Positions 23,023 to 39,203 of a stretch of 64,000 nt of DNA are shown here, piece after piece. Every line of letters starts with the position of its first letter. Position 1 is the stretch's first letter. Both the position numbers and the translations under genes were made by a program. This stretch comes from an uncultured Gammaproteobacteria bacterium (GTDB taxonomy: Bacteria; Patescibacteriota; Patescibacteriia; Magasanikbacterales; GWA2-37-8), in the NCBI GenBank assembly GCA_964496095.1, contig CAZBWU010000001.1, positions 185,474 through 249,473 of the forward strand. Direction: 5' to 3'. The notes under the pieces are model-generated. The model was not told where the DNA came from. It saw only the letters and a list, made by a program, of their open reading frames with translations, and did not search any database.

Positions 23023-23027
23023 AGTTG

Positions 23028-23101
23028 TGTCAGGGGAGAGAGTTGAACTCTCGACCTCGGGGTTATGAATCCCGTGCTCTTACCAACTGAGCTACCCTGA
23101 C
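23028..23101 (-). tRNA. tRNA-Met (anticodon CAU; elongator Met or Ile2-lysidine type)
   Basis: Hand-folded cloverleaf: acceptor GTCAGGG/CCCTGAC, D-arm GCTC-AGTTGGTAA-GAGC, anticodon loop TTCATAA, T-arm GAGAG-TTCAACT-CTCTC, discriminator A; no encoded CCA. Confidence 0.8.
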
Positions 23102-23227: not shown

Positions 23228-23299
23228 GGTCTCATCGTCTAATGGTTAGGACATTGCCCTTTCAAGGCGAAAATACGGGTTCAATTCCCGTTGGGACTA
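23228..23299 (+). tRNA. tRNA-Glu (anticodon UUC)
   Basis: Hand-folded: acceptor GGTCTCA/TGGGACT (two G-U pairs), D-arm GTC-TAATGGTTA-GGAC as in bacterial tRNA-Glu, anticodon stem TTGCC/GGCGA with loop CTTTCAA, T-arm ACGGG-TTCAATT-CCCGT, discriminator A. Confidence 0.8.
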
Positions 23300-23374
23300 C
23301 GACGATAACACTTTCCTGAAATAGGGGGGGGGTGTTTTTGTTTATGGTTACAGAAGAAACACCCTGTATACTCA

Positions 23375-23387
23375 GTTTGCCACCCTG
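23375..23387. repeat. Partial copy of cassette-boundary repeat (GTTTGCCACC-CTG)
   Basis: Matches the 5' half of the 30-nt repeat found at 25187, 25980, 27040, 29646. Confidence 0.4.
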
Positions 23388-23540
23388 TTTTTTATCTTTT
23401 TCTCACGTTTGTATCAATTCCTTCATTTCTCCTTTTGTTTACTGAATGTAAACGAGGTTTGCCAGATTTTTGTTTATTGCTTTGTAGAATGTAGACATTG
23501 GGCTTAGAAAGTCTTATAATGATTCTATCTTACAGCCCAG

Positions 23541-24386
23541 TTGTTTGTTATAAAAAGGAGTAATAATTCTAATTTTATGGACAGGGGAGAATTTCAACAA
23601 AACACAATCGAACAGTCACAAAATAACCCAGAGATTATTTGGCAATCACTTAGTGCTGAGGTTAGGGACAATTGTACTAAACTGCTTGAGCCACTTGTTA
23701 AGGAAAGTGAAGAAGTTCTTGGAGAAATTGTCAGCGATGAGAAACGTGCAGAGTGGATCTCTAAGGTAATGGAGGTAGAGAAAGTTTTCTTAACTCGGAT
23801 CATTGCAGAAACAGAACGAGCGCTTGCAGCTCGTCCTGGAGAAAAATTAATTACGCTTTTAGATATTGATGAGACAATCGGTGTTTCACCTGCTACTCCT
23901 GGTCCGCTGACAACAGTTTTACGTCCAAGCTTGGTTCCATTGTTGAGCCACCTCAAAAACCGTGGCGTACAACTAGGTTTTCTCACAAACCGAGGTGCCG
24001 CATTGAGGCAGCTTTCAGAAGAAAATCAGCTTCAACCTATTGCTGAGTGGATTGATCCGAATCTAATTTTTTCAGATAGGTCTTATGAGTATTGGGGTGA
24101 CGGCTCAATTGTGGATCTCAGTGAAAAGTTTGGTGGACCTGGTGGAATTATTGATGACTCAAAAATGACTGACAAAGGTGGCCCTATTAGATTTCGTCAG
24201 GGAGACTATAGAAAAATAATGGCTCTTGCTGATATTCGTACGAAATTTCCTACCGGAGCAATCATGGTAGTAGACGATTTTGACTATCCAAAGGTGCTTA
24301 ATAATCAAAATGGAATGTATGGAGTGTCTTTAAGATCCCCTAAAAGGAATGCGAGCCAGGGCATGTTTTTTCCTCCAGAACTTTAG
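23541..24386 (+). CDS. HAD-superfamily hydrolase-like protein (hypothetical)
   Basis: 281 aa (alternative start 23577); HAD motifs I LLDIDETIGV, II GFLTNRG, IV MVVDDFDYP. Confidence 0.45.
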   Translation: MFVIKRSNNSNFMDRGEFQQNTIEQSQNNPEIIWQSLSAEVRDNCTKLLEPLVKESEEVLGEIVSDEKRAEWISKVMEVEKVFLTRIIAETERALAARPGEKLITLLDIDETIGVSPATPGPLTTVLRPSLVPLLSHLKNRGVQLGFLTNRGAALRQLSEENQLQPIAEWIDPNLIFSDRSYEYWGDGSIVDLSEKFGGPGGIIDDSKMTDKGGPIRFRQGDYRKIMALADIRTKFPTGAIMVVDDFDYPKVLNNQNGMYGVSLRSPKRNASQGMFFPPEL

Positions 24387-24683
24387 CTCTTTCATTATAC
24401 TATTCTTAATAGTTGCTGCCTTTTATTAAATTAACAGCAAGCAGCATTCTGTAATTGGAGTGTTTTTTGTTTCTAGCCGTAATCAGCTCCTAAACTGATG
24501 TATAAAATTACTTGCCTTCTTCGCAATGAGATAAGACATCTTTTGGAGTAGGCAGGCGTTAAACTGACGATTTGAGCTTGATTACGGCTGATCTAGGAAC
24601 TGTTGTGGGTTTGATTTTCTTCAGATAGACAAAAGTAAATCAAAAAGATAGAATAGATTTATCAATTCAACTAAGCATAATTT

Positions 24684-25169
24684 ATGAAGCGTTTGTTAAG
24701 ACTTGTTGCAGTACTTTTATTATTAGGTGTTGGTTGCAGTTCAAATAAAATTAGCGCGCCTCAAACATATACTAATTCATTTCTTCAGATAACGATGGAG
24801 CTTCCAGTTGGTTGGTATGTAGGAGGTGAGGAGTACAAGCCTTATTTATATGCTAATCAGGAATGCGCTCAAGTTGAACATCTTGAATGTACAAGGATCG
24901 AAATAATCGAAGCTTTGAAGCTTGTTACTGGAGGCGTAAAAACTTTTGAGGAGGGATTGAAAAGAGACAAGACTCCGTATACAATTATTAGTCTTATTCC
25001 AAACGCGACAGTTTTTAAAACTGTTTTTGAGAAAAATACCGAAGATTATTCAAATCAATATTATATATTCTTTTCTCAAGAAGAAAGAGTATTCCTAGCT
25101 TCTGGCATTAGTGATGAAGGTGATAAGACAATCGAAGATGTGCTCGCTACCTTAAGGCTTTTAAAATAA
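24684..25169 (+). CDS. Lipoprotein of unknown function
   Basis: 161 aa; signal peptide with lipobox (LLLLGVGCSS). Confidence 0.55.
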   Translation: MKRLLRLVAVLLLLGVGCSSNKISAPQTYTNSFLQITMELPVGWYVGGEEYKPYLYANQECAQVEHLECTRIEIIEALKLVTGGVKTFEEGLKRDKTPYTIISLIPNATVFKTVFEKNTEDYSNQYYIFFSQEERVFLASGISDEGDKTIEDVLATLRLLK

Positions 25170-25186
25170 TCTCCCTAGCGAAATTT

Positions 25187-25216
25187 AAAAGTTTACCACC
25201 TGTCTCAATTAACCCC
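25187..25216. repeat. Cassette-boundary direct repeat copy A (AAAAGTTTACCACCTGTCTCAATTAACCCC)
   Basis: 18 nt after stop of 24684-25169; followed by hairpin AGTCCT...AGGACT. Confidence 0.8.
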
Positions 25217-25342
25217 ACAATCATGAAAAGCATCCAAAAGTGATGAAATTTTATTCCCTAGGTTTAATAGCAAGTCCTCTTTACTAAGGACTATATTTTA
25301 GCTATTATAAATAAAGTTTACTTATCCATTTATATTTATAAT

Positions 25343-25936
25343 ATGCCAAATTCAGGTGATCGGGAGGGTGGTTTAGAAAGGCAGAGGCAGGAGTTAATTG
25401 AGCGGTTAACTATGGAGCTTCATGAGGCAATGCAAACTATTTTTGGCGATCGATTAAACCGAGATGAGTCTAAAGAATTTGAAGTACTACCTGGAATTCC
25501 TAATCAAGATTTGACACTTGAGTTATGCGGTAAGATCCGTCAGTTGTTAGCGGCTCTGCATGAAGATAGTAAGTGGGAAGATTTTAATTCCCAACAGCGA
25601 CTCGCCACTGATGCTATGGAAGAACGAAGTTCAATAAAAATTGGTAAGAACATTACTCCAGAAAAATATAAGGAAGAGTGGGTTGAGTTCTCTGGTAATG
25701 ACAAATATGGTTTAGTGTATGGCCCTGGAATGAGTTCTGACGCTATACCCCAAATACAAAAAGATCGTGAATTAGAGCGCTTATATCTGGGGTGGTATAT
25801 CACTTTGTATAATGTTTATTTGCAAAGTTATCCAGATAGAATGAATAAAATAGTCGAAGCTCTTAAAAAGGCTGGCCTTCCCTTATTGCCAAATATTCAA
25901 AAACGTCTTTATGATCGTGTGAAGCCCAAATCGTAA
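25343..25936 (+). CDS. Hypothetical protein
   Basis: 197 aa ORF, no recognisable motifs; sits between two boundary repeats. Confidence 0.5.
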   Translation: MPNSGDREGGLERQRQELIERLTMELHEAMQTIFGDRLNRDESKEFEVLPGIPNQDLTLELCGKIRQLLAALHEDSKWEDFNSQQRLATDAMEERSSIKIGKNITPEKYKEEWVEFSGNDKYGLVYGPGMSSDAIPQIQKDRELERLYLGWYITLYNVYLQSYPDRMNKIVEALKKAGLPLLPNIQKRLYDRVKPKS

Positions 25937-25979
25937 CTTGATTTTTTATATATTAGGTAAGAGATTTGATCATTTACAG

Positions 25980-26009
25980 AAAAGTTTGCCACCTGTCTCG
26001 ATTAACCCT
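25980..26009. repeat. Cassette-boundary direct repeat copy B (AAAAGTTTGCCACCTGTCTCGATTAACCCT)
   Basis: 44 nt after stop of 25343-25936. Confidence 0.8.
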
Positions 26010-26026
26010 ACATAAACAGAAACCAC

Positions 26027-26050
26027 CCATTCACTGGATGGTTTTTTGTT
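26027..26050 (+). terminator. Rho-independent terminator
   Basis: CCATTCACTGGATGG hairpin followed by TTTTTTGTTT. Confidence 0.6.
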
Positions 26051-26158
26051 TAACGTTAGAGAAGGAAATGAGTTTACTATAAAATATAGATTAACGCCAT
26101 TGATAGTTTAGGAGTTAAGTAGTAATATTTCTGTATCTACTATTAACCTCAATTATTT

Positions 26159-27037
26159 ATGCCAACAGATAGAGAGTTGCCATTTGAATATGAAGATTTA
26201 ACTACACAAGGTGGGTTCGAGAGGGAGGCTCGTGCTGAAGCGGTTTTGTTTAAGATGGGGAATATTGATGTTTTAAAATTGAGTATGGCGGCCAGTAAAA
26301 CTGTCATCACTGTTGATTTAGAAGGTCGCCTTGCATCAGGAGGGGAAGAACCGGGCAGTTTAACAGTTGATGAGCTGTGGAACTACGGTTTGCAAAGTTT
26401 GCTTGAAAAAGAAGGTTGGATAGATAAGGATGATACCGCGTTAGCAGGTTGGACAGTTAACATTGAAACCAAACGGAAAGACCTGGGTTCAAAAGAATGG
26501 TTTGTTAGTTTTGTTTTAAAAAAGAATCAGAGGTCAGATTTGAAGGATATTGCCAGTATCCCACCATGGCCAGATATTCAGAGCAATCCATATTGGGATT
26601 CGACAGATAAAGTAGTTAGAGATATTTATAATAGAATTAATAAGATTATTAATCAGAGAGAAAGGCCTACGATTGATAGTGTAGTTTCGGATGTAAAAGA
26701 TTTTTGTGCTAGGGTAAAAATCGATTTAAAAAAAGAATTGGTAAATTTAGGAATTGCTCAAGATCATGTTGAGCAATTATTGAATAATCCGGACAAATTA
26801 TTGGAAAAAGTCCCTATTTATGATAGAACAAAAAAAGATTCCATGGGACATAAAATATTTCCTCGTAGTATTTTTGAACTTAGAACTTTAATGCTTTTAT
26901 TTTTGCCGTTGCAAAAGAAAATAGAAGGGGAAATTTCAAGTGATGATAAGGAGATTGTCAGTCAATTTAACTTGTTGGCTGACGATAATTTAGATTGGCT
27001 GAATGGTTTTGAGCGCAATCGATTTGATTATCCTTAA
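26159..27037 (+). CDS. Hypothetical protein
   Basis: 292 aa ORF, no recognisable motifs; followed directly by boundary repeat. Confidence 0.5.
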   Translation: MPTDRELPFEYEDLTTQGGFEREARAEAVLFKMGNIDVLKLSMAASKTVITVDLEGRLASGGEEPGSLTVDELWNYGLQSLLEKEGWIDKDDTALAGWTVNIETKRKDLGSKEWFVSFVLKKNQRSDLKDIASIPPWPDIQSNPYWDSTDKVVRDIYNRINKIINQRERPTIDSVVSDVKDFCARVKIDLKKELVNLGIAQDHVEQLLNNPDKLLEKVPIYDRTKKDSMGHKIFPRSIFELRTLMLLFLPLQKKIEGEISSDDKEIVSQFNLLADDNLDWLNGFERNRFDYP

Positions 27038-27039
27038 AT

Positions 27040-27069
27040 AAAAGTTTTCCACCTGTCTTGATTAACCCT
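27040..27069. repeat. Cassette-boundary direct repeat copy C (AAAAGTTTTCCACCTGTCTTGATTAACCCT)
   Basis: 3 nt after stop of 26159-27037. Confidence 0.8.
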
Positions 27070-27110
27070 GTAAAATAAAAAACACCCCGGTTAATCCAAG
27101 ATGTTTTTTG
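27058..27110. terminator. Bidirectional terminator-like hairpin between convergent genes
   Basis: CTTGATTAACC ... GGTTAATCCAAG inverted repeat (the 3' end of repeat C forms the left arm) followed by TTTTTT at 27104-27109. Confidence 0.45.
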
Positions 27111-27124
27111 TGTCAACAATTCTA

Positions 27125-29548
27125 TTAAAAAGGCAGATTTGAAGTATTAAAAACTATAATTCGACGACCAAAACTAGGGTCAGATATGTAAAGTTTTTTA
27201 TTGGCCTGGTCAAAAGTAAGCGAGTGAGGCATATTAATTGCCGATGTGTCATGTTGGAACCAGTTGTTGGCGGTAAAATCAGTTTGACCCAACACGCCTA
27301 TGGCTGGTTCGCCATTATTTATGGTATTTACATCAAATACTAACACTCGATTGCGGTAATCTGATACATATAAAATATTACTTTCCGAATCAAGTGCAAC
27401 GCCATCAGGAATCGCCATGTTGTTGTCGGAAGTAACTAGGCTATAAACGTTGCTATTAAAATCAGTTTGACCCAATACACCGATAGCTGGTTCGCCATTA
27501 TTTATGGTATTTACATCGAAAGCAAGTACTCGATTATTCACAAAATCTGCTGTGTAAAGAATGTTTCTATTTTTATCAAGAGTAAGCGCAGTTGGGCTCC
27601 ATAGAGTGGTCGCGTTGGGAGTAGCCATGCCTTGGTTTGGTAATCCGTTGTTAAAATCATTTTGTCCTAAGACTGCAATCGCTGGCTCGCCATTAGTTAC
27701 TTGGTGTATGTCAAAAATCATAACCCGACTATTTCCCCATTCAGATATATAAAGTAGTTGGCGTTTAATATCAATTGTTGCAGCTACAGGACCGTTAAAT
27801 GTGTTATTGCGTATACCTGGTTTATTAGTACCGGTAAAACTATCGTTTCCTAACACGGCAATTGCCGCCTCGCCATCGGTGATTGTGCTTACATCATAGA
27901 TTAGCACCCGGTTATTATAACCATCAACGACAATTAGTTGATTATTTTTGCCGTTATAAGCTACCCCCATTGGTTGAGACAGTGTTTTAGCAGTCATAAC
28001 TCCGCCTTGGTTGAATCCACTGGAATAGAAATTATTTTGTCCTAAAACGTTGTCGGCATGATAATCAATCAAGTTGTTATTAATGTCAAGATTAAAAACT
28101 AAGACACGATTGTCAAATGTATCAACCACAAATAGTCTATGATTTTTAATATCAATGGCGGTTCCGTATACAGAATCAAATCCGTAATCGTTTACTATTT
28201 CACTATTGGTCCCAGCTTGTTGGAATGATAATTGGCCAGTATGGTCAATTTGACCAAGGAGACCTATAGCCGGTTCATCATTATTTATAGTACTAACATC
28301 AAAAATCATTACTCGACTGTAGCTGGCATCGGCAACATATAATCTATTATGTCCATCAAGCGCAAGTCCTTTTGGTGATGCCATGGTATGGTTGCTTAAG
28401 GGTCGAGGTAAACTACTATTTAAATCAGGCTGGCCTAGTACGGCTATAGCACTGTCGCCATTATGAATATTACTTGCGTCAAAAATCATTACGCGGTCTG
28501 TTGGTGGATTTGCATCTGAAATGTATAACAGGTGGTTGGTATTGTCATAGACAATCCCAAGAGGTTCGCCAATGGTTGTTTTTGAGGTCGGTTGAAGATT
28601 GCCAGAAACAAAATCCTGTTGTCCCAAAACATATGTTGCTTCTTCGCCATTGGCTATATTGCTCGTGTCATATCCTAATGCACGGTGGTTGCCAAAGTCT
28701 ACAACAAAGAGAATATCGCGATCGAAATCATACGTGATATTGATAGGCATATATAAAGTTCGTGCAGATACAGGGCCACCTTGATTTTCTAGATGGGCAA
28801 GCAAATTATTTTGACCAAGCACCGCTATCGCAGGTTCGCCGTTATCGATAGTAGACACATCAAAAACCGCTACGCGATTTTTGCCTGTGTCTGCAACATA
28901 GAGAATACTACCTTTTGTATTTAGAGTGACTCCTTGAGGCAAAATGAGATGAGTAGTTTGTTCGGAGGTGTCATAGACAAAAGATGCGTCTGTGAATTCT
29001 TTTGGTCCGAGCACTGCCACGGCCTGTTCGCCATTATCTATAATAGCTGTGTCATATATCAATACGCGATTATTTCCTGAATCAGCGACATAGAGGAGAT
29101 TTCTATCTTGGTCAAACGCTAATTGGCGAGGGTAATCCAATGTATCTGCATTGGTCTGACCTCCTCGGTTTGCAAGATGCCCTTCGAAATCAGCTTGTCC
29201 TAACACGTAGCTTGCCGTATGGCTCAGTGGTTTGTAACTTTGTGGGTCAAGCAGGAAAACCATTACTCTACTATTTTGTGTATCGGATATAAACAATCTT
29301 GCATTATTTTTATCAATGATCATATTTTGTGCTTCATCAAAAGCAAAGTCACTGATAGGTGTGCCATGGTCTTGCCACTGGTTGAAATTTGGTTGTCCAG
29401 CCTGTGTTAGTTGGCCTATTACCTGTACAGCCGGCAAAAGTAGGGCATTAGCAGGGGATTGGAACCCAAACAATCCACTTGTGGCTAAAAGAGAAAAAAG
29501 ACTTAGATTAGCCAACATTTTAAAGGTCAAATTGTGTTTGTTTACCAT
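27125..29548 (-). CDS. Secreted NHL-repeat beta-propeller protein
   Basis: 807 aa; signal peptide; at least 15 tandem NHL-type repeats (YVADSGNNRVLIYD, YVADTGKNRVAVFD, FVVDFGNHRALGYD, YVADASYSRVMIFD, IVVDGYNNRVLIYD, YISEWGNSRVMIFD ...). Confidence 0.75.
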   Translation of the reverse strand: MVNKHNLTFKMLANLSLFSLLATSGLFGFQSPANALLLPAVQVIGQLTQAGQPNFNQWQDHGTPISDFAFDEAQNMIIDKNNARLFISDTQNSRVMVFLLDPQSYKPLSHTASYVLGQADFEGHLANRGGQTNADTLDYPRQLAFDQDRNLLYVADSGNNRVLIYDTAIIDNGEQAVAVLGPKEFTDASFVYDTSEQTTHLILPQGVTLNTKGSILYVADTGKNRVAVFDVSTIDNGEPAIAVLGQNNLLAHLENQGGPVSARTLYMPINITYDFDRDILFVVDFGNHRALGYDTSNIANGEEATYVLGQQDFVSGNLQPTSKTTIGEPLGIVYDNTNHLLYISDANPPTDRVMIFDASNIHNGDSAIAVLGQPDLNSSLPRPLSNHTMASPKGLALDGHNRLYVADASYSRVMIFDVSTINNDEPAIGLLGQIDHTGQLSFQQAGTNSEIVNDYGFDSVYGTAIDIKNHRLFVVDTFDNRVLVFNLDINNNLIDYHADNVLGQNNFYSSGFNQGGVMTAKTLSQPMGVAYNGKNNQLIVVDGYNNRVLIYDVSTITDGEAAIAVLGNDSFTGTNKPGIRNNTFNGPVAATIDIKRQLLYISEWGNSRVMIFDIHQVTNGEPAIAVLGQNDFNNGLPNQGMATPNATTLWSPTALTLDKNRNILYTADFVNNRVLAFDVNTINNGEPAIGVLGQTDFNSNVYSLVTSDNNMAIPDGVALDSESNILYVSDYRNRVLVFDVNTINNGEPAIGVLGQTDFTANNWFQHDTSAINMPHSLTFDQANKKLYISDPSFGRRIIVFNTSNLPF

Positions 29549-29645
29549 ATGGTAAAAATTAAGAAAAAGATTAATATTTTGAATATTAACATCGAATTGT
29601 ATATTAAAATAGGGTTATTGTCAACCTTAACTATGTCCCCCCGAT

Positions 29646-29675
29646 AAAAGTTTGCCACCTGTCTTGATTAACCCT
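29646..29675. repeat. Cassette-boundary direct repeat copy D (AAAAGTTTGCCACCTGTCTTGATTAACCCT)
   Basis: 98 nt beyond the start codon of the minus-strand NHL gene, same orientation as copies A-C. Confidence 0.8.
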
Positions 29676-29795
29676 ATAACAGCAAAAAATTGAACTCTTT
29701 TATTTTTCTTATAATCTGTTAAACTTACTGAGTACGCGCTTACTTATTTGGGAATACTAAACTGCATTTTAGTATTATCATTTTTTATTTCATAT

Positions 29796-30176
29796 ATGGC
29801 AAAAAATAAAGTCGGTTATGTCGATGGATTTGTATTGGTTGTGCCAAAAAACAAGCTGGCTCAGTATCGCAAAATGGCAAAAGGCGGATCTAAAGTTTGG
29901 TTAAAATATGGCGCGCTTGGTTATAAAGAATGTATGATTGATGATGCTAAGCCAGAACATGTTATGTTTACCTTTTTAAAAATGGTAAAAGCTAAGCCAA
30001 ATGAAACAGTATGGTTCTCGTATATAGAATATAAAAATAAAAAACATCGTAATCAAGTAAATGCGCGCGTGATGAAGGATCCATTTATGAAATCCGATAA
30101 TTCTGATATGACAAATATGCCATTTGATTTGAAACGCATGGCGTACGGTGGGTTTTCAGTTGTGGTAAGCGACTAA
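29796..30176 (+). CDS. DUF1428 (YbaA-like) family protein
   Basis: 126 aa from ATG 29796; conserved pattern YVDGFVLVVP...GALGYKEC..DD...MPFDLKRMAYGGF as in E. coli YbaA-type proteins. Confidence 0.6.
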   Translation: MAKNKVGYVDGFVLVVPKNKLAQYRKMAKGGSKVWLKYGALGYKECMIDDAKPEHVMFTFLKMVKAKPNETVWFSYIEYKNKKHRNQVNARVMKDPFMKSDNSDMTNMPFDLKRMAYGGFSVVVSD

Positions 30177-30234
30177 ATAGCCTAATTTAAATTCAAAAAT
30201 ATAAGCTACGAAAAAATTTACCAATAAAGAGGCG

Positions 30235-30774
30235 ATGGATGTTCATAAAGTTTACTTTAAAGTTTTTTATTATAATTATATGAAGGAAAATTTTAATCTT
30301 AAAACATGGGGAGAAAACCATAAAGTCATAGTCATAATATTAATTTTGGCTATTGTTGTCATCGGATCGAAGGTTATAAATAAAGATTACCGACAGTCTG
30401 TTTCTATTGTTTCAACTGAAGAAAAAAATAGCACTTCCACTCCTAAGACCGAACTATTACCTACGCAAGATTGGGTTAAAATTATTAGTTTAGATGCAGA
30501 AGCAAATAAGCAAAGTGAAATTTTCCATTTAGCGGGCGGCGAACAAAAGCTTGTTTATAAAGCAAGCGGGGGAAAATATTTATTGTGTTACATATATATT
30601 GTACCCAAAAATCAATCAATAGATTTAAATGGCGGTTTCCCTGAAGTCAAAATTGATGTGACAAGCGCTTCGGAGGTTTTTATAAAAAAGAACTCGGGAG
30701 ATTATTATTTGGATATTAAAGTTGTTAACGGAACTTGCGGGGCTGAATTACAAGAAATTAGACATGATAAGTAG
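30235..30774 (+). CDS. Hypothetical membrane-anchored protein
   Basis: 179 aa; N-terminal TM helix (VIVIILILAIVVIGS), no recognisable domain. Confidence 0.45.
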   Translation: MDVHKVYFKVFYYNYMKENFNLKTWGENHKVIVIILILAIVVIGSKVINKDYRQSVSIVSTEEKNSTSTPKTELLPTQDWVKIISLDAEANKQSEIFHLAGGEQKLVYKASGGKYLLCYIYIVPKNQSIDLNGGFPEVKIDVTSASEVFIKKNSGDYYLDIKVVNGTCGAELQEIRHDK

Positions 30775-30803
30775 GCAGTTAATACAAGCTAAAATATAAA
30801 TAT

Positions 30804-31667
30804 ATGAAACCGGCTGATTTAAAAACCAGGATTTTTCTTGATGGAGGGGATCCTCAGGAAACAAAGGATATAGTAGCTAAGCTTGGCTGGCTTGATGGCC
30901 AGACTACCAACCCGACGCTTATTTCAAAAAACCCGGAAGCTCAAAAAAAACTTGCCTCTGGTCTGAAATTTTCAACTAATGAAATATTAAATTTTTATCA
31001 TCAAGTTGTAGAGAGTATTTCGGCTGTGGTGCCTAAAGGTTCAGTTTCGGTTGAGGTCTATGCAGACAAAAATACCACAGCTAGAGAAATGCTAGAACAG
31101 GGTAAAAAAATGTATACTTGGATTCCTAACGCGCATATCAAGTTGCCAATTACTGGGGCAGGTCTAGAAACGGCCGAAGAAATGATTAAAGAAGGAATGA
31201 GAGTTAATATGACATTATGTTTTTCTCAAGAGCAGGCCGGCGCAGTCTATACCGCCACACAAGGGGCATTGCCTGGTCAAGTATTTTTATCGCCATTTGT
31301 GGGCAGGCTTGATGATACCAGTGAAAACGGTATGTCTTTGATAGAAAATATTTTGCGATTGTATAAAGATAGCGACCATCATGTGGATGTGCTTACTGCC
31401 AGTGTACGAAGCAAAGAACATTTTTTGCACGCCTTGCAAGTTGGTTCGGATATTATCACAGCGCCATACAAATTATTATCAGACTGGGCAGAAGGCGGAC
31501 AGGTTTTTCCGGCAGATGATTTTGTCTATCAACCAAACGGCCTCAAGCCAATTGATTATAAAGAACTAGATTTGAGTAAACCGTGGCAGTCTTTTGATAT
31601 TAGTCACCCCTTGACCACCAAAGGTCTGGAGAGGTTTGCGTCTGACTGGAATTCATTAATAGCTTAA
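30804..31667 (+). CDS. Transaldolase / fructose-6-phosphate aldolase family protein
   Basis: 287 aa; IFLDGGDPQETK...GQTTNPTLI and catalytic-Lys region KLPITGAGLETAEEM. Confidence 0.75.
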   Translation: MKPADLKTRIFLDGGDPQETKDIVAKLGWLDGQTTNPTLISKNPEAQKKLASGLKFSTNEILNFYHQVVESISAVVPKGSVSVEVYADKNTTAREMLEQGKKMYTWIPNAHIKLPITGAGLETAEEMIKEGMRVNMTLCFSQEQAGAVYTATQGALPGQVFLSPFVGRLDDTSENGMSLIENILRLYKDSDHHVDVLTASVRSKEHFLHALQVGSDIITAPYKLLSDWAEGGQVFPADDFVYQPNGLKPIDYKELDLSKPWQSFDISHPLTTKGLERFASDWNSLIA

Positions 31668-31686
31668 TTTATTTATATTTAAAAAT

Positions 31687-32295
31687 ATGAATACAGATTT
31701 TTCTTTTGTCTCCAAACATTACGCCGCTAGAGATCATGCCAAAATGCAGGAAGTGTTAATGAACCCAGAGGGAGTCGGACCTTCTATCCATTATTATATG
31801 ATCCGCGGAGGAAGCGATCAGCGCAATATTACTGTCTGGGAGCCGGGGACCATTAGCGACGAATATATAAAGACTTACGGACATTATCATATTGGCCAAC
31901 TTGATGAGACCTATTGGATATTATTTGGCGAAGGCATTGCCTTAAAACAAAAAATGGCAGTAGGGGAAGATGGAAAATCTTTGCCTGATGTGATTGAAGA
32001 GTTTTTGGCTATTCCGGTTAAGGCTGGAGACAGTGTCTATATGCCACCGGGTTATGGGCATTTGGTAGTTAATGTTGGTAGTACTTATTTTGTGACTGCG
32101 GATAACAGTCCAGTAAATTTTGATGAAGCTAATCCTGTGAGTATGCCCGGACATGCTGATTATGAAATTGTGAAAAAAATGCGCGGGTTCGCATATTATG
32201 TGGTGGAACACAATGGCAAACCAGCCTTAAAAAAGAATCCCTTGTATACCAAGATTCTCAAAGAAGAGTTAGCTGGGCTACCTGTAATTTCTTAA
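31687..32295 (+). CDS. Cupin-fold protein, putative cupin-type glucose-6-phosphate isomerase
   Basis: 202 aa; metal-binding cupin motifs TYGHYH ... GE ... YMPPGYGH; adjacent to transaldolase. Confidence 0.45.
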   Translation: MNTDFSFVSKHYAARDHAKMQEVLMNPEGVGPSIHYYMIRGGSDQRNITVWEPGTISDEYIKTYGHYHIGQLDETYWILFGEGIALKQKMAVGEDGKSLPDVIEEFLAIPVKAGDSVYMPPGYGHLVVNVGSTYFVTADNSPVNFDEANPVSMPGHADYEIVKKMRGFAYYVVEHNGKPALKKNPLYTKILKEELAGLPVIS

Positions 32296-32297
32296 AA

Positions 32298-34118
32298 TTA
32301 AACGCTAAGACCAAGTCTGCTAGCGCGCAAAGCATTAAAAATTACTAGCACGTCAATCACTTCTTGCAGGAGCGCGCCTAGTAGCGGTGGCACATAGCCA
32401 AAGGCAGCGCCAATCATCAGGATAATACTTAAGCCAATACCAAACCAAATACTTTCCAAAGCAATGCGGATAGTTTTTTTGGCTAGAGAAATTATAAAGG
32501 TGACTGAAGAAATGTCTCCGCCTAAGAAGACGATGTCAGCGGCTTCTGAGGCAGCGGTGTGTTCTTCGTTGCTAAATACTAGACCCACATCGGCAATGGC
32601 TAGCGCCGGCGCGTCGTTGATACCATCGCCGACCATTGCTACTACACTGCCTGATTTTTTTAAGTTCTCTACACCGATTTTTTTATCTTCTGGGGACAAG
32701 CCTGCTTGCACCGTTATCATACCGCCAGCCTCGCCAAGTTGAGCAACTATTTTTTCTGCATTTTCCTGACGGTCGCCGGTGAAAATAAATAAAGACAGTT
32801 TTAATTTTTTTAGAGCGCTGATAATGCCGGCAGAATCGTCTTTTAATTTATCTTCAAATTCAAATCGAGCAATTAGTCTATTTTGGTCGTGAAGTTCAAT
32901 GGCGTTGGTATGATGATTTTTGGACATTTTGGCCAACGAGTATTGGTGTCCTTCGATCACGGCTGAAATTCCAGAGCCAATTTTTTCATCTACTTTTTCG
33001 GCAATCATGTGAGGCGCGCCGATTTCTTTGGCGCCAGCGACAATAGCTTTGGCCAGAGGATGTAGAGAATTGCGCTCGATAGCTTCGGCAATGCTATATA
33101 TTTTTTTAAGATCAAAACTTTTATCAAATATTTCTACATTGCTCACAAGCGGTCGGCCAAGAGTAATAGTACCGGTTTTGTCTAGGACTACAGCCGTCAC
33201 TCTAGATAATATTTCTAAACTGGATAATTTTTTGGTCAAGATTCGGTTTTTGGCAGCGGAGTTCATGCCACCAAATAAGGCGATAGGTGTAGCTAGGATT
33301 AGCGGGCAAGGTGTAGCAACCACAAGCACTGCCAAAACTCGTTCGAGGCTGTGGCTCATCATAAATCCCCCCAGGGCTATGACAGCGGTGATAATAGTAA
33401 ATATTGTACTGTACCGGTCGGCCAAGCGAATGAGGGGCGCTTTTTCAGTCTGCGCTTTAGTGACCATGTCGATAATTTTTCTATAGGTTGAATCCCGGTC
33501 TGATTTTGTGACACGAAGCGCCAAAATATTTCCCATGTTAATAGTGCCACTACGAATCGGGTCGCCGGTCATTTTTTCTACGGTGTATGGTTCACCAGTC
33601 AGGGATGATTCATCAAGTATGGCTTCTTCAGAAATCAAGACGCCATCAAGCGGCACCACTTCTCCTTTTCTTACGACAATTTCTTCGCCAACATCTACTG
33701 TCTCAATGGCGCGACGACTGTCAATTTTTCCTTTGTTCCACAAAGTCACTTCGTTGGGTATGCGTTCGGTCAGAGCGGTGAGTGATTGTTTGGCTTTGGC
33801 CATGCCGTATTTTTCTAGGGTTTGTCCGCCGGAAAGCATGAAGACAATTATCAAAGAAACCAAAAATTGGCCGCTAATCAAACTAACGATAATGGCCAAG
33901 ATGGCGATATAGTCTAGGGCGAAATGTTTGTTTTTCAGAGCTAGGGCTGTTTCTTTTAATAAATCAAAACTGCCAATGGCGACAATAAGTCCTGCCCACC
34001 AGGCGCTGATAGTGGGTAGGTGGAAAAAATATAACAAAAAATTATAGACCACAATTCCTAGTAATACCAAGGCGGGGATTTGGAAAAAACCGACTAGTTT
34101 GGCAATTGATTTGAGCAT
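32298..34118 (-). CDS. P1B-type heavy-metal translocating P-type ATPase (6-TM, no N-terminal metal-binding domain)
   Basis: 606 aa; TGEP, phosphorylation motif DKTGTIT, hinge GDGINDAPAL, TPC in TM (P1B-4-like Co/Zn subgroup architecture). Confidence 0.8.
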   Translation of the reverse strand: MLKSIAKLVGFFQIPALVLLGIVVYNFLLYFFHLPTISAWWAGLIVAIGSFDLLKETALALKNKHFALDYIAILAIIVSLISGQFLVSLIIVFMLSGGQTLEKYGMAKAKQSLTALTERIPNEVTLWNKGKIDSRRAIETVDVGEEIVVRKGEVVPLDGVLISEEAILDESSLTGEPYTVEKMTGDPIRSGTINMGNILALRVTKSDRDSTYRKIIDMVTKAQTEKAPLIRLADRYSTIFTIITAVIALGGFMMSHSLERVLAVLVVATPCPLILATPIALFGGMNSAAKNRILTKKLSSLEILSRVTAVVLDKTGTITLGRPLVSNVEIFDKSFDLKKIYSIAEAIERNSLHPLAKAIVAGAKEIGAPHMIAEKVDEKIGSGISAVIEGHQYSLAKMSKNHHTNAIELHDQNRLIARFEFEDKLKDDSAGIISALKKLKLSLFIFTGDRQENAEKIVAQLGEAGGMITVQAGLSPEDKKIGVENLKKSGSVVAMVGDGINDAPALAIADVGLVFSNEEHTAASEAADIVFLGGDISSVTFIISLAKKTIRIALESIWFGIGLSIILMIGAAFGYVPPLLGALLQEVIDVLVIFNALRASRLGLSV

Positions 34119-34344
34119 AGGGCGTCTTTTTTGATTAACATATTATCAGCTTATTTTACTCGCATGCTTGTTTGTTGTCTAATTGAGGGTTGTTTTAAAC
34201 TTTAATTTGTTATATAACTAAAATTATATAAACAAGATCGAGGGGTTGTTTTAAGGTATTTTATGATTAATTTTAGTCTATGTATTGATAAAGAATCTGT
34301 TGATTTTTTTGAAGTTTATTTTTTGTATTAAAATCAAAAGTGGT

Positions 34345-35724
34345 ATGAAGAAACTTATAATATATCTTGATCAAAATTTTATTAGTAATATAGCAAAATT
34401 GAAAACATCTACTCAGAATACAGTTCTTAACCAAAAGCTTCAAGGAGTTTTTGAGATGATAAAAAACGGGGTGAATGAAGAGAAATTTGTAGTTCCAGAT
34501 AGCTTTATTCAGCATATGGAGACTGCAAAAATAGAAAACAATTTGGAGTTGATTGATTTGATATACGATCATTTAAAGTATCTTGGTCAAATTACTTTCT
34601 TACAGCCCTGGGAGATTGAAGATAGGCAGTTTTACGATGCTTTACTATCCTATTGTGGAAAACAAAAGCAAGGTGAAGAATCCTGGAAAGCTGCATTTAA
34701 CGAGAATCCAGATAAAAGAATGGAAAATTTTGACATTACTGTAAAGATGCCGAATATAGATTTTGATTTTAATACGAAACAGAAACTTCAAGAAATAAGA
34801 GATACTGAGCAGGAGTATGAAGTCCAATATCTAAGAGAGCTTGAAGTGGCGCGCACTAGCTATAAAGAAAATCTTCGTACTGAACACTCCTATACGTTAA
34901 GATATTACGGTGTTACTATTGAAGAAGCTGAAAAATTTATTGATTCTGACGAATTTGCAAAAATACCTTATTTAAATATCTATTCTCGTTTATGGGCCAA
35001 AAATATTTCTAAAGAGGGTAAAAAAGAAATGGGTGAAGGCGATTTTAACGATATACAAATGCTTTCGGCTTACTTACCATATTGTGATGTCTTGGCAACA
35101 GACAAGTATATGAAATCGCTAGTTGAAACATTGGGATTGGATAAGAAATATAATTGCAGTATCTTTTCAATGAAAACTGAGCAGTTGGATGATCTGATTT
35201 CTTTTCTAAAGAAAGAAATAGAAGGTAGAAAGCCAGCAAATCATAATCTATTTTCAGTTGTATGTTACTCAGAAGACGGGGAAAATGTTTATTCTTTTGA
35301 CGTATTAAAAAGACTGGTTACAGCAAAAAATAAGTTTGAGAATACTGGTAAATACTGTGATAAAGAAATAAACACGACAGTTTATTTGGTTAGAGATAAA
35401 GATGAGATTAAGATGCCAGACACGAATGTCATTTTACAGCACGGCCCATCAGTTCTAAATCTAGAACAAAGGAAAGAAATGTTTATCTTTTTATCTAATG
35501 GGATTAAAAATTTATTTAACCCAAATAATGAGGTGGTTGAATCTTTGATAAGGAAAATTCCTAAACATCTAATTGGCGAAGGGGTTGCTTTATTGGAAAA
35601 GAACACTCCATTTGATAAGGAGTTAATTGAATATGATAGTGACTTATTTTATGATATTGAAGCAGCTATAGAAAAGCACGCTGAGCTAACTGAGAAATAT
35701 AAGATAAAGATAATTTATTCTTAG
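34345..35724 (+). CDS. Hypothetical protein in AT-rich islet
   Basis: 460 aa from ATG 34345 (ORF track starts 34285); very AT-rich codon usage unlike neighbours; no recognisable motif. Confidence 0.5.
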   Translation: MKKLIIYLDQNFISNIAKLKTSTQNTVLNQKLQGVFEMIKNGVNEEKFVVPDSFIQHMETAKIENNLELIDLIYDHLKYLGQITFLQPWEIEDRQFYDALLSYCGKQKQGEESWKAAFNENPDKRMENFDITVKMPNIDFDFNTKQKLQEIRDTEQEYEVQYLRELEVARTSYKENLRTEHSYTLRYYGVTIEEAEKFIDSDEFAKIPYLNIYSRLWAKNISKEGKKEMGEGDFNDIQMLSAYLPYCDVLATDKYMKSLVETLGLDKKYNCSIFSMKTEQLDDLISFLKKEIEGRKPANHNLFSVVCYSEDGENVYSFDVLKRLVTAKNKFENTGKYCDKEINTTVYLVRDKDEIKMPDTNVILQHGPSVLNLEQRKEMFIFLSNGIKNLFNPNNEVVESLIRKIPKHLIGEGVALLEKNTPFDKELIEYDSDLFYDIEAAIEKHAELTEKYKIKIIYS

Positions 35725-35828
35725 GTACTGTCTGTGTACTTTAATTTTAAAAAATGTCTATTTGTGATTGATTTGAATTATCCAGATCAAAATAGCAAAC
35801 CAACAATATTTTTGCTATACTGAAAGCT

Positions 35829-36572
35829 ATGAAATACCTAATAATTATATTCACAGTCATAGCCATCGGCCTATATTCCAATTGGGCGTATGGTCGTATC
35901 TATGCCACTATTGGCGAAAAACATTTGCCCAATCCTACTATGCATCAGAAGATAATTTTGCCAGCCCCATCCAAAACTCATGTCAAAAAAATAGTCTATG
36001 TGGCTTTGGGAGATAGTTTGACTGCCGGAGTGGGGGCAAGCGGAGAAGATAAAACGTATCCATATTTATTGGCCAAAATGTTGGCTGAAAAACAAAATGC
36101 ACAAGTGACTTTGATAAATCTTGGTGTGCCTGGAGCAGTGGCAAGTGATGTATTAAAAAACCAAGTGCCACAGGTGGCACAGTTTCATCCAGATATTGTT
36201 TCGGTTGCTATCGGGGTCAACGATATGCACAATCAAGTGTCTGGCAAAATATTTTCTCAGACCATGTCAGAGATTGTTGATAAGCTAAACAGCACCACCA
36301 AACATTTAAATATTATTAACATTCCGTTTATCGGCGGTAGTAATGTATTTTTACCGCCATATAGATTGTATTTTGATTTGCAAACCAAACGTTATAATTC
36401 TTTGTTAAATAAAGCGTTGGTTGGTCGGCAAGCAAATATTATAGACCTGTATTCACTTACTCGTGAAAAAGCCTTTTATAATCAGTTGTATTATTCGGCT
36501 GATGGTTTTCATCCTGGGGATGCTGGGTACGATTTTTGGAGTAAAGCTTTGTATGATTATTTCGATTATTAA
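35829..36572 (+). CDS. SGNH/GDSL hydrolase family protein
   Basis: 247 aa; N-terminal TM/signal, catalytic block VALGDSLTAGVG, GVND, DGFHP. Confidence 0.8.
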   Translation: MKYLIIIFTVIAIGLYSNWAYGRIYATIGEKHLPNPTMHQKIILPAPSKTHVKKIVYVALGDSLTAGVGASGEDKTYPYLLAKMLAEKQNAQVTLINLGVPGAVASDVLKNQVPQVAQFHPDIVSVAIGVNDMHNQVSGKIFSQTMSEIVDKLNSTTKHLNIINIPFIGGSNVFLPPYRLYFDLQTKRYNSLLNKALVGRQANIIDLYSLTREKAFYNQLYYSADGFHPGDAGYDFWSKALYDYFDY

Positions 36573-37677
36573 TGCGATTGCAGAAACTCATATTGTGGAG
36601 GTGGTATTTTTAGTTGCCTTGATATTGTTTATCCGTCCTACCAAAGAATTTACTTTTTTTTCAATCGAAACCACGACCGAACTAAAAGGCTTGGCGATAC
36701 TAATGGTAGTTCTGTCTCACATTGGTTATTTTTTGGTCAGTGATAATCGATTCCTAGTACCTCTATCAAATTATGCGGGTGTGGGTGTGGATTTGTTTTT
36801 GATTTTGTCCGGATATGGACTAGTAGCTACAGCTTTGCGTCGACCATTATCAATTGGCAAGTTTTATCTCAAACGTTTGGCGCGCGTGTATGTGCCGGTA
36901 CTAATTACCGTAGTATTTTTCTTAGCCCTAGATTTTTTTGTATTACACAAAATCTATCCGACCAAAAATATAATACAAAGTCTGTTGGGATTTTTTCCAA
37001 ATGCAGATATCTATGGCGATCTCAATTCACCGCTTTGGTATATTACACCTTTGCTTATTTATTATCTTTTATTTCCAATTATCTTTTGGCGCAGATTTCC
37101 GCTACTGTCGGCTCTGGCGATGGTGATTATCGGTTGGTGGGGTGTGAAGTATGTGGGTGGGTCAAGCAGGTTTTTTGAAGTGGTGTTTAAGTTATATCGC
37201 TATCACTTTGTGGCCTTTCCAGTAGGTATGACTCTGGGCGCGCTGGTTAATAAACCACCAGTATTTATTACGCAGTTGATTGATTGGCTAAAGCCTTATT
37301 TTCAAAAAAAATATGTGGCTTCTATTTGTCGCTGGGCTTTGATTGCGGTAGCTAGCTATATTTTTATGTACATGTATTACCATCCAACGTATGGACAGAG
37401 TTGGAAGAGGGAAGTCGTGGCGAGCCTCATTACCGCTGGAGCAATTATGGTTATATTTTTGTTTAAGAAAATTAATTTTAAAATATTATACTGGTTCGGA
37501 TTATTTTCTTTTGAAATATATTTATTGCATTGGCCATTATTATATAGGTACAATTTTTTGTATGGCAAAATCCCGGCTGGGATAGCCACGATTATTTATC
37601 TAGGATTATTTTTGGGGGTAGGGTATCTGTATAATAGGGGAGTTGGAAGGTTGTTTGGCAAGAAACAGAAAGTTTAA
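36553..37677 (+). CDS. Acyltransferase family 3 (OafA-like) integral membrane protein
   Basis: About 375 aa from ATG 36553 (ORF track start 36463 overlaps the upstream gene by 110 nt); 10+ TM helices. Confidence 0.65.
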   Translation: MIISIINAIAETHIVEVVFLVALILFIRPTKEFTFFSIETTTELKGLAILMVVLSHIGYFLVSDNRFLVPLSNYAGVGVDLFLILSGYGLVATALRRPLSIGKFYLKRLARVYVPVLITVVFFLALDFFVLHKIYPTKNIIQSLLGFFPNADIYGDLNSPLWYITPLLIYYLLFPIIFWRRFPLLSALAMVIIGWWGVKYVGGSSRFFEVVFKLYRYHFVAFPVGMTLGALVNKPPVFITQLIDWLKPYFQKKYVASICRWALIAVASYIFMYMYYHPTYGQSWKREVVASLITAGAIMVIFLFKKINFKILYWFGLFSFEIYLLHWPLLYRYNFLYGKIPAGIATIIYLGLFLGVGYLYNRGVGRLFGKKQKV

Positions 37678-37680
37678 ATA

Positions 37681-37714
37681 AAAACCCCGCCCTTCGTGAA
37701 GAGCGGGGTTTTTA
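37681..37714. terminator. Bidirectional rho-independent terminator
   Basis: AAAACCCCGCCCTTCGTGAAGAGCGGGGTTTTT between convergent genes. Confidence 0.85.
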
Positions 37715-37726
37715 TTTGTATAATTT

Positions 37727-38464
37727 TTATTTTCTCATCATCCGTCCCATTCCTTTAAAAAATCCTTCTGGTTTGTCTTTTAAAGTCATGATATTTATTT
37801 TTGTAGCGCCGACAGTTTTGGCAGTGCTGTCTACTTTACCTGTGGCAATTATAATCTGACCAACAGTGAGATCTCCTAGTGAAGCAGTAGCGCCGTCTTT
37901 GGTGACAGTCGTATTACTGGTACTGTCTACCGTATAAGTTAAAGTTTCAGTTGAGGCTGGGGCATTCATCATGCGACCGCCAAATGGTTTTACTTCCAAT
38001 GTGAGAGAGAATGGGCTAACTGTGAGGATTTTGCCCACGACGTGAGTTTTTTCTTGGCCGTCTGCTTTTTTGTCGCGTAGCATACCCACGCCATCAATTA
38101 TAGTTTTGGCAGTAATGTTAGTGCCGGAGATTGTGCCCATAACACCGATTTTATCGCCTACCTTGATATCTGCTAGGGTCAGAGCTTCGGTATTTGGTCC
38201 AAAACCGCGTGTGATCTTGGCTTTGGTCGTATCTACTGTGTAAGTAGTGCCATCATGGCCTGTAATGGAGAGTGTTGTGCCGTTTATAGCTGCTACTGCC
38301 CCTCCCATTCCCGGTCTGCCGCCTTTAGGGCCATTCTTTGAATTAAAAGAAAATCCAGTATGATTTTTGCCACCCATTGCATGAGCAATAGCGCTACCAG
38401 AGGTAGTAAGCAAGGTGATAACTACAACGGCCGTTAAAATGATATATTTCTTCTTCTTTTGCAT
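37727..38464 (-). CDS. Secreted protein of unknown function with internal tandem repeat
   Basis: 245 aa; signal peptide; two similar segments (TYTVDTTKAKITRG...VGDKIGVMG / LTYTVDSTSNTTVTKDG...VGQIIIATG). Confidence 0.5.
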   Translation of the reverse strand: MQKKKKYIILTAVVVITLLTTSGSAIAHAMGGKNHTGFSFNSKNGPKGGRPGMGGAVAAINGTTLSITGHDGTTYTVDTTKAKITRGFGPNTEALTLADIKVGDKIGVMGTISGTNITAKTIIDGVGMLRDKKADGQEKTHVVGKILTVSPFSLTLEVKPFGGRMMNAPASTETLTYTVDSTSNTTVTKDGATASLGDLTVGQIIIATGKVDSTAKTVGATKINIMTLKDKPEGFFKGMGRMMRK

Positions 38465-38585
38465 AAAATTATGAAGTTAATTTCTGGGCTGGTGGCAGCC
38501 CATAAGTTAATACGTACAAAAAGTCGATAAGGGTGCAAACAAAAAAAGCCTATATTTTAAGGCTTATTAATTGGTAAAGTATTTG

Positions 38586-39203
38586 TTATTTTCTCGGATA
38601 GAAAAACAAGACTAGACTAATAATGGCAGCGAAAAAGCACCAGACAGAAGTAAAATTAACAGCGTAGAAATACCAGGTGATAAGAGAAAAGACTAAGATG
38701 AGTAGAGAGTATAATTTTACTATTGGTTTGCTAGAGGCAGCTCCAGCGCCGATGGTGGCGAGGATATATAAGTATCCAAGTAGGTGAGGGTATGGAGCCA
38801 GGTCGGGATAGTACAAACAGCGATTAACAATTTCCGCAGATTCGGGATTGCGTAAAAAGCTGGCGTAGAAAATAGCTCCTACTACTGTACCTGCAATGCT
38901 GAAAAAAGTGATAATAGTTCGTCTAGCTTTGTGGGTTTCTAGTGACAAGGCTGCTAGTGGTAAATATGTGGGCCAAAAGAATAAGGCAAAGAAAAGAAAT
39001 ACATGAGTGAGCGGGAGGACATATTGCGGATAGCTTTTGAGAGATATCCAGAGCAGGCCTTCAACAAATTGTTGTAAGGCAAAAAATAAAGGCATGGCCA
39101 TCAACGGCCAAGCTTTTTTGTTTTGAGTTTTGATTAATCCGGCAGTACCGACAAGACCGAGAACTGTGCTAGCGGTAAAACTGGCAGTAGCAGAAAAACA
39201 CAT
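38586..39203 (-). CDS. Hypothetical integral membrane protein
   Basis: 205 aa, about 6 predicted TM helices. Confidence 0.5.
   Translation of the reverse strand: MCFSATASFTASTVLGLVGTAGLIKTQNKKAWPLMAMPLFFALQQFVEGLLWISLKSYPQYVLPLTHVFLFFALFFWPTYLPLAALSLETHKARRTIITFFSIAGTVVGAIFYASFLRNPESAEIVNRCLYYPDLAPYPHLLGYLYILATIGAGAASSKPIVKLYSLLILVFSLITWYFYAVNFTSVWCFFAAIISLVLFFYPRK

Follow-up and report, generated by a model that had tools for sequence, protein, structure and literature searches.

Organization of the locus

The stretch of DNA analysed here, hereafter the window, comprises 64 kb of contig CAZBWU010000001.1 and comes from a low-GC genome of the candidate phyla radiation (CPR, Patescibacteria), a group whose genomes are tiny and whose gain and loss of accessory genes are poorly understood. 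It carries a divergent pair of tRNA genes, tRNA-Met and tRNA-Glu, and on the 3′ side of tRNA-Glu a row of four gene-containing units, each closed by a copy of a 30-nt direct repeat that we call R (Table 1). The tRNA pair, the four co-oriented copies of the repeat and the layout of the units had been recognized in a first-pass annotation made from the sequence alone, and all of these were confirmed: two genes share the first unit, single orphan genes occupy the second and third, and the gene for an NHL-repeat protein fills the fourth, where it runs against the direction of the array. The label ‘HAD-like’ given to the first open reading frame (ORF) was not upheld, because it rests on a DxDxT-like motif (LLDIDET) read by eye and no Pfam match was found at E ≤ 0.01. 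Likewise, the two orphan genes had been thought GC-richer than their surroundings, and the 1-kb bins over them gave GC fractions of 0.356 and 0.348, against ~0.37–0.40 in the flanks. The first unit opens with a conserved module of ~75 nt, D, which is separate from R and was found after tRNA-Glu or after R in six places. The supposed partial fifth copy of the repeat at 23375 is part of this module; its likeness to R is limited to GTTTGCCAC, 9 nt (14 of 15 positions with one gap), and stays below 12 bits on the R matrix described below.

Table 1. Coordinates of the tRNA genes, modules, cassettes and R copies in the window
Feature	Position	Strand	Description
tRNA-Met	23027-23101	-	Divergent from tRNA-Glu
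tRNA-Glu(UUC)	23228-23300	+	3′ end ...GTTGGGACTA, then C at 23301; core CTAC 23298-23301
D module	23301-23383	+	Recurrent cassette 5′ end; terminator hairpin 23307-23336, GGTTACAG
GTTTGCCAC motif	23375-23383		Within D module
Cassette 1	23301-25218	+	D module, 269/281-aa ORF, 125-nt element, 161-aa lipoprotein ORF, R1 then AC
269/281-aa ORF	23541/23577-24386		Cassette 1
125-nt element	24472-24596	+	Between the 269-aa and lipoprotein genes
161-aa lipoprotein ORF	24684-25169		Cassette 1
R1	25187-25216	+	AAAAGTTTACCACCTGTCTCAATTAACCCC, 46.8 bits
Cassette 2	25219-26011	+	X-type 5′ module from 25217 (CAATCATGAAAAGCATCC...), 197-aa orphan ORF 25343-25936, R2
R2	25980-26009	+	AAAAGTTTGCCACCTGTCTCGATTAACCCT, 57.4 bits
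Cassette 3	26012-27071	+	Terminator hairpin 26027-26041 and T run, 292-aa orphan ORF 26159-27037, R3
R3	27040-27069	+	AAAAGTTTTCCACCTGTCTTGATTAACCCT, 44.9 bits
Cassette 4	27072-29677	+	A-tract/hairpin/T-tract ~27080-27112, 807-aa NHL-repeat ORF, R4
807-aa NHL-repeat ORF	27125-29548	-	R4 of the same cassette nevertheless on +
R4	29646-29675	+	AAAAGTTTGCCACCTGTCTTGATTAACCCT, 50.4 bits

A 30-nt repeat at the end of each unit

The four R copies differ from the degenerate pattern of the first-pass annotation at 0–2 positions and from the consensus of 26 distinct sites at no more than 3; no match to the pattern arose in 100 dinucleotide-preserving shuffles. A position weight matrix built from the 26 sites, with a reporting threshold of 12 bits, scored exactly these four copies in the 64 kb (45–57 bits), and mononucleotide shuffles gave at most 8 bits. 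The consensus reads (A)AAGTTTGCCA(CC/AG)TGTCTCGATTAACCCT, or in a shorter form AAAGTTTGCCA(CC/AG)TGTCTCGATTAACCCT. Across the 26 sites R is one sharply edged block of high information, ~30 nt in length and followed by a semi-conserved purine (A/G) and a C; to its left there is no conservation, and to its right A-richness alone.

Genome-wide occurrence after ordinary genes had been named beforehand as the finding that would speak for a generic element. In ~243 kb, that is the window and 11 related loci (labelled L001, L002, L003 and so on), R was confined to the arrays described here and to one solitary site, L001, on another contig of a Magasanikbacteria metagenome-assembled genome (MAG), where an island ends in R. 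A generic terminator or repetitive extragenic palindromic (REP)-like element was rejected on this distribution, and a DNA uptake sequence was rejected since R does not occur dispersed over the genome. Scanning one genome for each species gave three genome loci, namely that of the Magasanikbacteria MAG and those of two MAGs labelled Gammaproteobacteria, a metagenome scan gave five short contigs, all of them from Hainich groundwater, and a collection of viral contigs gave no match to R.

Several other identities of R were considered and set aside. CRISPR arrays have 25–70-nt spacers and cas genes nearby. R copies are spaced 563–4192 nt apart with genes in between, and the sole Rfam CRISPR hit was sub-threshold and lay on a terminator, not on R. 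Rfam searches at gathering thresholds (whole window) and at E ≤ 5 (23–30 kb) recovered only the two tRNAs and assigned no family to R. A coding role was discarded because frame 3 reads KFATCLD*, with upstream ORFs out of frame and no start codon. R is no partial tRNA, as it lacks a T-arm hairpin and its similarity to tRNA-Glu is not significant; nor does it show, by eye and against consensus sequences, the inverted arms around a 6–8-bp centre of a dif/Xer site. The resemblance of ATTAACCCT to the start of the T3 promoter was treated as coincidence, the −7 to +1 core being not conserved.

The first-pass annotation had compared the region with integrons and proposed folding the repeats as a check for attC-like bulged structures. 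A genuine integron, or an integrase-less attC cluster (CALIN), would account for co-oriented repeats between mostly single unrelated genes, for the one reversed gene and for the variation in content among relatives. R, however, is a non-palindromic 30-mer and not even an imperfect palindrome: when the 26 sites were folded with their flanks on both strands, R paired inconsistently with upstream, downstream or internal partners, and neither a common hairpin nor a consistent R′′/R′ pairing emerged on either strand. The three hairpins that had been named as following the repeats do exist; they are intrinsic-terminator-like, lie 3′ of R at the start of the next unit and show no consistent pairing with R. 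Most cassette starts in fact carry a GC hairpin 10–15 nt from the junction, the X-type starts being the exception. Moreover, no intI was found among the window ORFs scanned, some cassettes hold several genes behind a leading terminator, and the anchor is the 3′ end of a tRNA gene and not an attI beside intI. Hence what was kept from the earlier interpretation is a site-specific cassette array beside tRNA-Glu, and its assignment to the integrons, for which we see next to no prospect, was dropped.

Arrays at the same locus in related genomes

Syntenic loci of further relatives (72–81% TsaD identity) were found through TsaD homologues. Magasanikbacteria-like relatives, at 72–85% TsaD identity, share the same DnaE-TsaD-tRNA-Met/tRNA-Glu backbone, and the two MAGs labelled Gammaproteobacteria match the backbone of the window at 71% and 84% nucleotide identity. 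R arrays were present on the 3′ side of tRNA-Glu in eight of ten loci (the window, L002, L003, L011, L012, L014, L016 and L018), with one to five R copies each. All 24 array sites scoring at least 25 bits, the four of the window included, are co-oriented with their array, and with tRNA-Glu as well, except in L011. There the tRNA-Met/tRNA-Glu pair (9710–9954) has the opposite orientation to that in every other locus, with breakpoints at or very near both tRNA 3′ ends, and therefore the array adjoins tRNA-Met and tRNA-Glu faces TsaD. A de novo repeat search in L017 and L020 disclosed no alternative R family.

Identical gene content and order in all relatives had been named in advance as evidence against a cassette array; content differed in every relative. 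The cassette genes are almost wholly different from one relative to another, with flanks 70–90% identical, and apart from one near-identical strain pair the arrays have in common only R, a few short 5′ modules and two cassette segments of ~0.5 kb. The cargo in relatives includes Schlafen/AlbA_2, amidase, XRE with M78 peptidase, AbiJ-like, ParE toxin, GNAT acetyltransferase and Fic/RhuM-like proteins together with many orphans, and some cassettes contain up to four genes on both strands (L002). Decayed or weak R copies occur as well, for example in L003, L012, L016 and L017. No recombinase domain was detected by Pfam in the 49 window ORFs scanned, in agreement with the first-pass annotation, which had noted no integrase in the window; nor was a tyrosine recombinase domain (IntI or other) found in these ORFs or in the genes called at the relatives' loci, and no recombinase lies beside the arrays of L002, L003, L011, L012, L014, L016 and L018.

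Two further observations were made at these loci. Some cassettes share ~110 nt upstream of R, ending ...ACTCATCAGAGTGTTTTTTAATAT, at 79–88% identity (L012 650–810; L014 2415–2563 and 3725–3875, positions downstream of tRNA-Glu), and therefore a longer 3′ module travels with R in some cassettes. In L020 (6343–6530, minus strand), tRNA-Glu is directly followed by a 168-nt insert, on the two sides of which 11 nt of the tRNA 3′ end (GTTGGGACTAC) are duplicated. The insert appears structured (GGGGCACC...GAGGAAAGCCC...), lacks R and matches no Rfam family.

Base-exact junctions beside tRNA-Glu and R

The 3′ end of tRNA-Glu, which is the fixed left partner of the array and the equivalent of attI/attB, reads ...GGGRCTAC in nine of nine relatives, and the sequences diverge beyond it. 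Homology between loci breaks at CT|AC on both kinds of left partner, ...GGGRCT|AC on the tRNA side and ...AACCCT|AC on the R side. Moreover, five cassette 5′ ends adjoin tRNA-Glu in one genome and R in a different one, the homology starting at the identical base in each case. The X start sits behind the tRNA in L003, and behind R in the window (at R1), in L003 itself and in L018. For the D start, the cases on the tRNA side are the window, L002 and L014; on the other side it was found behind R in L014, behind a divergent R in L016 and behind a doubtful, decayed R in L017. The other three starts have the tRNA as left neighbour in one locus and R in a second: AAATAAAAATACTCC / AAATAAAAATACTCCGG in L016 and L002, ACGG.TTTAGAACATG in L012 and L014, and ACCAAAAGGGATTTCA in L017 and L016, respectively. 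The clearest example is the pair L002 and L016, with 98.2% identity as far as the final base of tRNA-Glu and 97.2% identity beginning at the following module: L002 has an extra module of 3,958 bp exactly between these two points, with CTAC at both ends, D at its start, four genes on both strands and R at its end. The two left partners are otherwise unrelated, since R matches the tRNA-Glu 3′ end at 14 of 32 positions including CTAC, and outside CTAC at 10 of 28 (p = 0.15).

Unrelated left partners joined to swappable right partners with base precision therefore indicate site-specific recombination. Homologous recombination could spread such arrangements, and it cannot create them. It is very probable, in our judgement, that the region is a site-specific cassette array at tRNA-Glu, in which R plays the part of attC and the tRNA 3′ end that of attI. 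Strain differences could also spread through transformation and homologous recombination once the junctions have arisen, and this, together with the variation just 3′ of R (the dinucleotide is other than AC in 8 of the 26 sites, GC in five and GT, AT or CT in three), weighs against so simple an account.

If R were instead a regulatory or RNA signal (a 3′-untranslated-region element, an operator or a promoter −35 region), with turnover through homologous recombination after DNA uptake, one would understand why it lies between stop codon and terminator for three window genes, why TTGCCA-N17-TACAAT spans R and the X-type starts, and what the ComEC encoded in the window might contribute. Yet R4 follows the 5′ end of a minus-strand gene, so that R is not tied to gene 3′ ends, and R is found at one locus per genome. 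The −10-like hexamer occurs solely in X-type junctions, where a transcript would hit a terminator at once, and a promoter as the general function of R was rejected for this reason. The tRNA|start junctions that lack R, placed at one base in five module types, are moreover beyond homologous recombination. A regulatory role as the explanation of the locus thus appears very improbable.

Candidate recombinase and proposed mechanism

The only recombinases seen at this exact junction are large serine recombinases (LSRs). In L019 (77% TsaD identity), a 566-aa LSR ORF abuts tRNA-Glu and reads into its 3′ end, with the junction tRNA...GGGGCTAC|AACAGCCGAATC (also given as GGGGCTAC|AACAGCC). An identical LSR lies at the same junction in another host, at 95–97% TsaD identity to L002, and is prophage-borne, because endolysin-type and lysis genes lie upstream; hosts of the L002 type carry R arrays. 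A 58%-identical LSR from a different, GC-richer lineage also abuts tRNA-Glu at ...GGGGCTAC|, and in a relative at 81% TsaD identity this position is taken by two LSR genes, behind which come small genes and a pair of helix-turn-helix and M78 peptidase genes; the M78 peptidase shares 89% identity with the one encoded in L001, where the island ends in R. Members of the family, all of them from relatives and none from the window, have an N-terminal resolvase domain, a recombinase domain and a zinc ribbon (Pfam PF00239, PF07508 and PF13408), are ~26% identical to annotated phage LSRs, and have the catalytic Y..R.S (R42, S44) invariant in an alignment of 22 sequences (A4). In the same alignment the C-termini read MVxPRGIEP, the translated reverse complement of the tRNA acceptor/T arm, and therefore most database members were called from integrated copies, the C-termini in free elements being different. 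A search for relatives in viral contigs gave only 30%-identical members, beside tRNA-Gly: in IMG/VR contigs L032 (6001–7662) and L033 (6001–7719) they adjoin the 3′ end of tRNA-Gly(gcc) with the same geometry, which suggests that tRNA 3′ ends are the target of the family at large. In L019, at the end of the contig, a GC-rich, apparently structured non-coding stretch (100–260) without an Rfam match lies upstream of the gene for the prophage recombinase.

The partner sites, the tRNA end and R, have just CTAC in common. A tyrosine integrase needs a longer identical overlap between its partner sites, and a shared core of 4 bp therefore fits a serine recombinase, with its 2-bp crossover, and not a tyrosine integrase. 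Direct observation covers the repeats, the eight arrays, the exactness and interchangeability of the junctions, the single cassette by which two strains differ, and the LSR elements at the junction, and from these we suggest the following course of events. A module consists of a short A-rich stretch, in most cases an intrinsic-terminator hairpin, one to four genes in either orientation and R at its end. A site-specific recombinase would cut at or beside the 4-bp core CT|AC of the tRNA-Glu end and of the R 3′ edge, so that a circular module (R|start) recombining with tRNA|x would yield tRNA|start...R|x. Each new module would enter beside tRNA-Glu and shift older ones outward, the reverse reaction in cis would excise one or more modules next to the tRNA, and modules further out would decay, as the weak R copies in the four loci mentioned above suggest. 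The recombinase would be an LSR of the CPR-wide family, supplied in trans by prophages or small islands at the tRNA-Glu junction, with R serving as the element-side left half-site of the attachment site. The passage of modules through circles, the order of insertion and the action of LSR on R are inferred.

Several points weigh against this mechanism, and most of them concern the enzyme. No LSR or LSR remnant was found in the window or in any R array seen (Pfam; tblastn), the LSRs occurring only in separate elements (L019/L023 and the P0004 locus). None of these elements was recovered with both ends, the L019 contig stopping 360 nt upstream of the LSR gene, and in no case was an LSR element seen to terminate in R. 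A resemblance to R at the distal end of the L027 element was persuasive by eye, but did not exceed chance in a locus-wide local-alignment scan. Canonical LSRs recombine attP with attB only, and each site has two recognisable half-sites. At our locus the right arms are unconserved (R-C and an A-tract only), and any right arm occurs with either left arm, which a conventional LSR should not permit. Also, inspection by eye revealed no dyad symmetry between R and either the module starts or the LSR-side arm in the L019 prophage. Weighing these points, we put it at about an even chance that the LSR family is the enzyme acting at the array, and we regard as reasonably probable the explanation as a whole, namely that the units from tRNA-Glu (23228) to R4 (29675) are four captured modules driven by LSR. 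A bolder formulation, which we offer as a possibility on the doubtful side, is that the array is a CPR analogue of an integron driven by a phage-borne LSR on ‘one-armed’ sites, of which only the left half-site (the tRNA-Glu end or R) is specified.

The same array could have been built by another enzyme encoded elsewhere in the genome, such as a tyrosine recombinase of the integron or Xer kind or a single-strand transposase (HUH or other), which would recognise R and cut at its 3′ edge; the LSR prophages would then merely share the tRNA-Glu hotspot. A one-armed site, conserved over its 30-nt left arm and free on the right, is seen more typically with attC/IntI or with transposases that recognise ends than with LSRs, the GC hairpin near the junction in most cassette starts could be a structured end, and the window has no LSR. 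Against such an enzyme, neither the scanned window ORFs nor the genes called at the relatives' loci include one, R has no hairpin, and LSRs alone occupy this exact junction, in three independent contexts. We therefore hold another enzyme to be unlikely, and prefer the LSR.

Because LSR elements integrate at tRNA-Glu, the R copies might also be inert scars, the leftover attR arms of LSR prophages or islands that were later mostly deleted; some modules indeed look like remnants of prophages or integrative elements (amidase, XRE with M78 peptidase, Fic/RhuM), and some R copies are decayed. R is nevertheless nearly invariant (0–3 mismatches) with flanks only 70–85% identical, implying selection. 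Fragments of LSR genes would be expected beside the tRNA, and none was found, and precise movement explains better the base-exact swapped starts and the one clean module between 98%-identical strains. Inert scars are thus an improbable origin of the repeats. Under the bolder, one-armed formulation given above, each recombination product would again be a substrate, allowing open-ended stacking, excision and exchange of cassettes at a tRNA gene without a resident integrase.

Further features of the window

Each module looks like an insulated unit with its own terminator and sometimes promoter-like hexamers, unlike the promoterless cassettes of integrons; promoter-like sites ahead of some cassette genes were no more frequent than in shuffled sequence. 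PHROGs and PADLOC searches with the window cassette proteins gave nothing useful, and the cassette DNA had no match among INPHARED phages.

The 125-nt element of cassette 1 folds into a long stable hairpin with internal arms (minimum free energy −41.6 kcal/mol, z = −4.9 against shuffles) and has no Rfam family. It is 75% conserved in L002 (1943–2060), directly 3′ of the D module, and absent from the other loci; an array-linked guide RNA was rejected as its role, because an element present just in the window and L002 is no general component. A separate family of REP-like palindromic repeats, TGTCATTC(T/C)GAGC...GAAGAATC, occurs in the window at 18178, 22221, 22620, 50412, 59969, 60027, 62676, 62733 and 63163, in both orientations and in some cases as inverted-repeat pairs, several of them within or beside the DnaE and TsaD coding regions.

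Synteny of the backbone with relatives (LssY_C, RNase Y) returns only at ~41.9 kb. The interval after R4 (29676–41900) encodes a DUF1428 protein, a transaldolase, a cupin-type glucose-6-phosphate isomerase, a P-type ATPase and an acyltransferase, and because relatives hold other genes there, this interval may belong to the variable region as an older portion from which the R copies have disappeared.

Comparison with known systems

Our literature searches found no description of such arrays in CPR. The locus is a base-exact capture site, whose 30-nt tag is kept across a groundwater Magasanikbacteria-like clade and whose cargo turns over between 98%-identical strains, and the array marks four uncharacterised window proteins (269, 161, 197 and 292 aa) and an NHL surface protein as exchangeable accessory cargo. 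If a phage LSR is the enzyme, the locus would represent a second, mechanistically independent route to integron-like arrays, and the relaxed use of short sites (the tRNA-Glu end and R) by a serine integrase would be unusual and could have practical value for genome engineering.

With integrons the array shares a fixed entry site, co-oriented cassettes each closed by a recombination site, a crossover at the 3′ edge of that site that leaves a few conserved bases on the next cassette, occasional reversed genes, rapid turnover between close relatives, and a cargo rich in orphans, toxin-antitoxin and defence-like genes. It differs in that no tyrosine integrase is present and entry is at a tRNA 3′ end, and in that R is a 30-nt, sequence-conserved, non-palindromic element, whereas attC of integrons is a folded site of 57–141 nt; moreover, the cassettes have their own terminators and perhaps promoters, and hold up to four genes.

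Staphylococcal cassette chromosome (SCC) and psi-SCC elements at rlmH (orfX) are moved by the LSRs CcrAB/CcrC, and their repeats are copies of the rlmH end. As in our locus, the 3′ end of a conserved housekeeping gene carries a stack of tandem modules bounded by short direct repeats, many of the modules lack a recombinase and rely on that of another element, and the enzyme class is LSR, which for the array is a candidate only. In contrast to SCC, R is unrelated to the tRNA-Glu end apart from CTAC, and the modules are much smaller (0.56–4.2 kb).

Integration of phages by LSR (phiC31, Bxb1, A118) resembles the junctions described here in the very short shared core, in the position of the integrase gene at the element end by the junction (L019, L027), and in the insertion at the very end of a gene, which leaves the tRNA intact. 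The difference is that right arms are free in our arrays and products act as substrates again, which, if true, would be a new mode for the LSR class.

In the tycheposons of Prochlorococcus, new arrivals are reported to push older elements further into the island, partial tRNA copies serve as boundaries, the elements have their own integrases and replication genes, and a minority use large serine recombinases (bioRxiv 10.1101/2020.12.28.424599). Islands beside tRNA genes and degenerate remnants are common to both systems. The boundary repeat in our arrays, however, is not tRNA-derived, a partial duplication of the tRNA end being found only in L020 (11 nt) among the loci tested, and the modules lack an integrase. 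The array thus shares its logic with integrons, its stacking and candidate enzyme class with SCC, and its anchoring at a tRNA gene with tycheposons.

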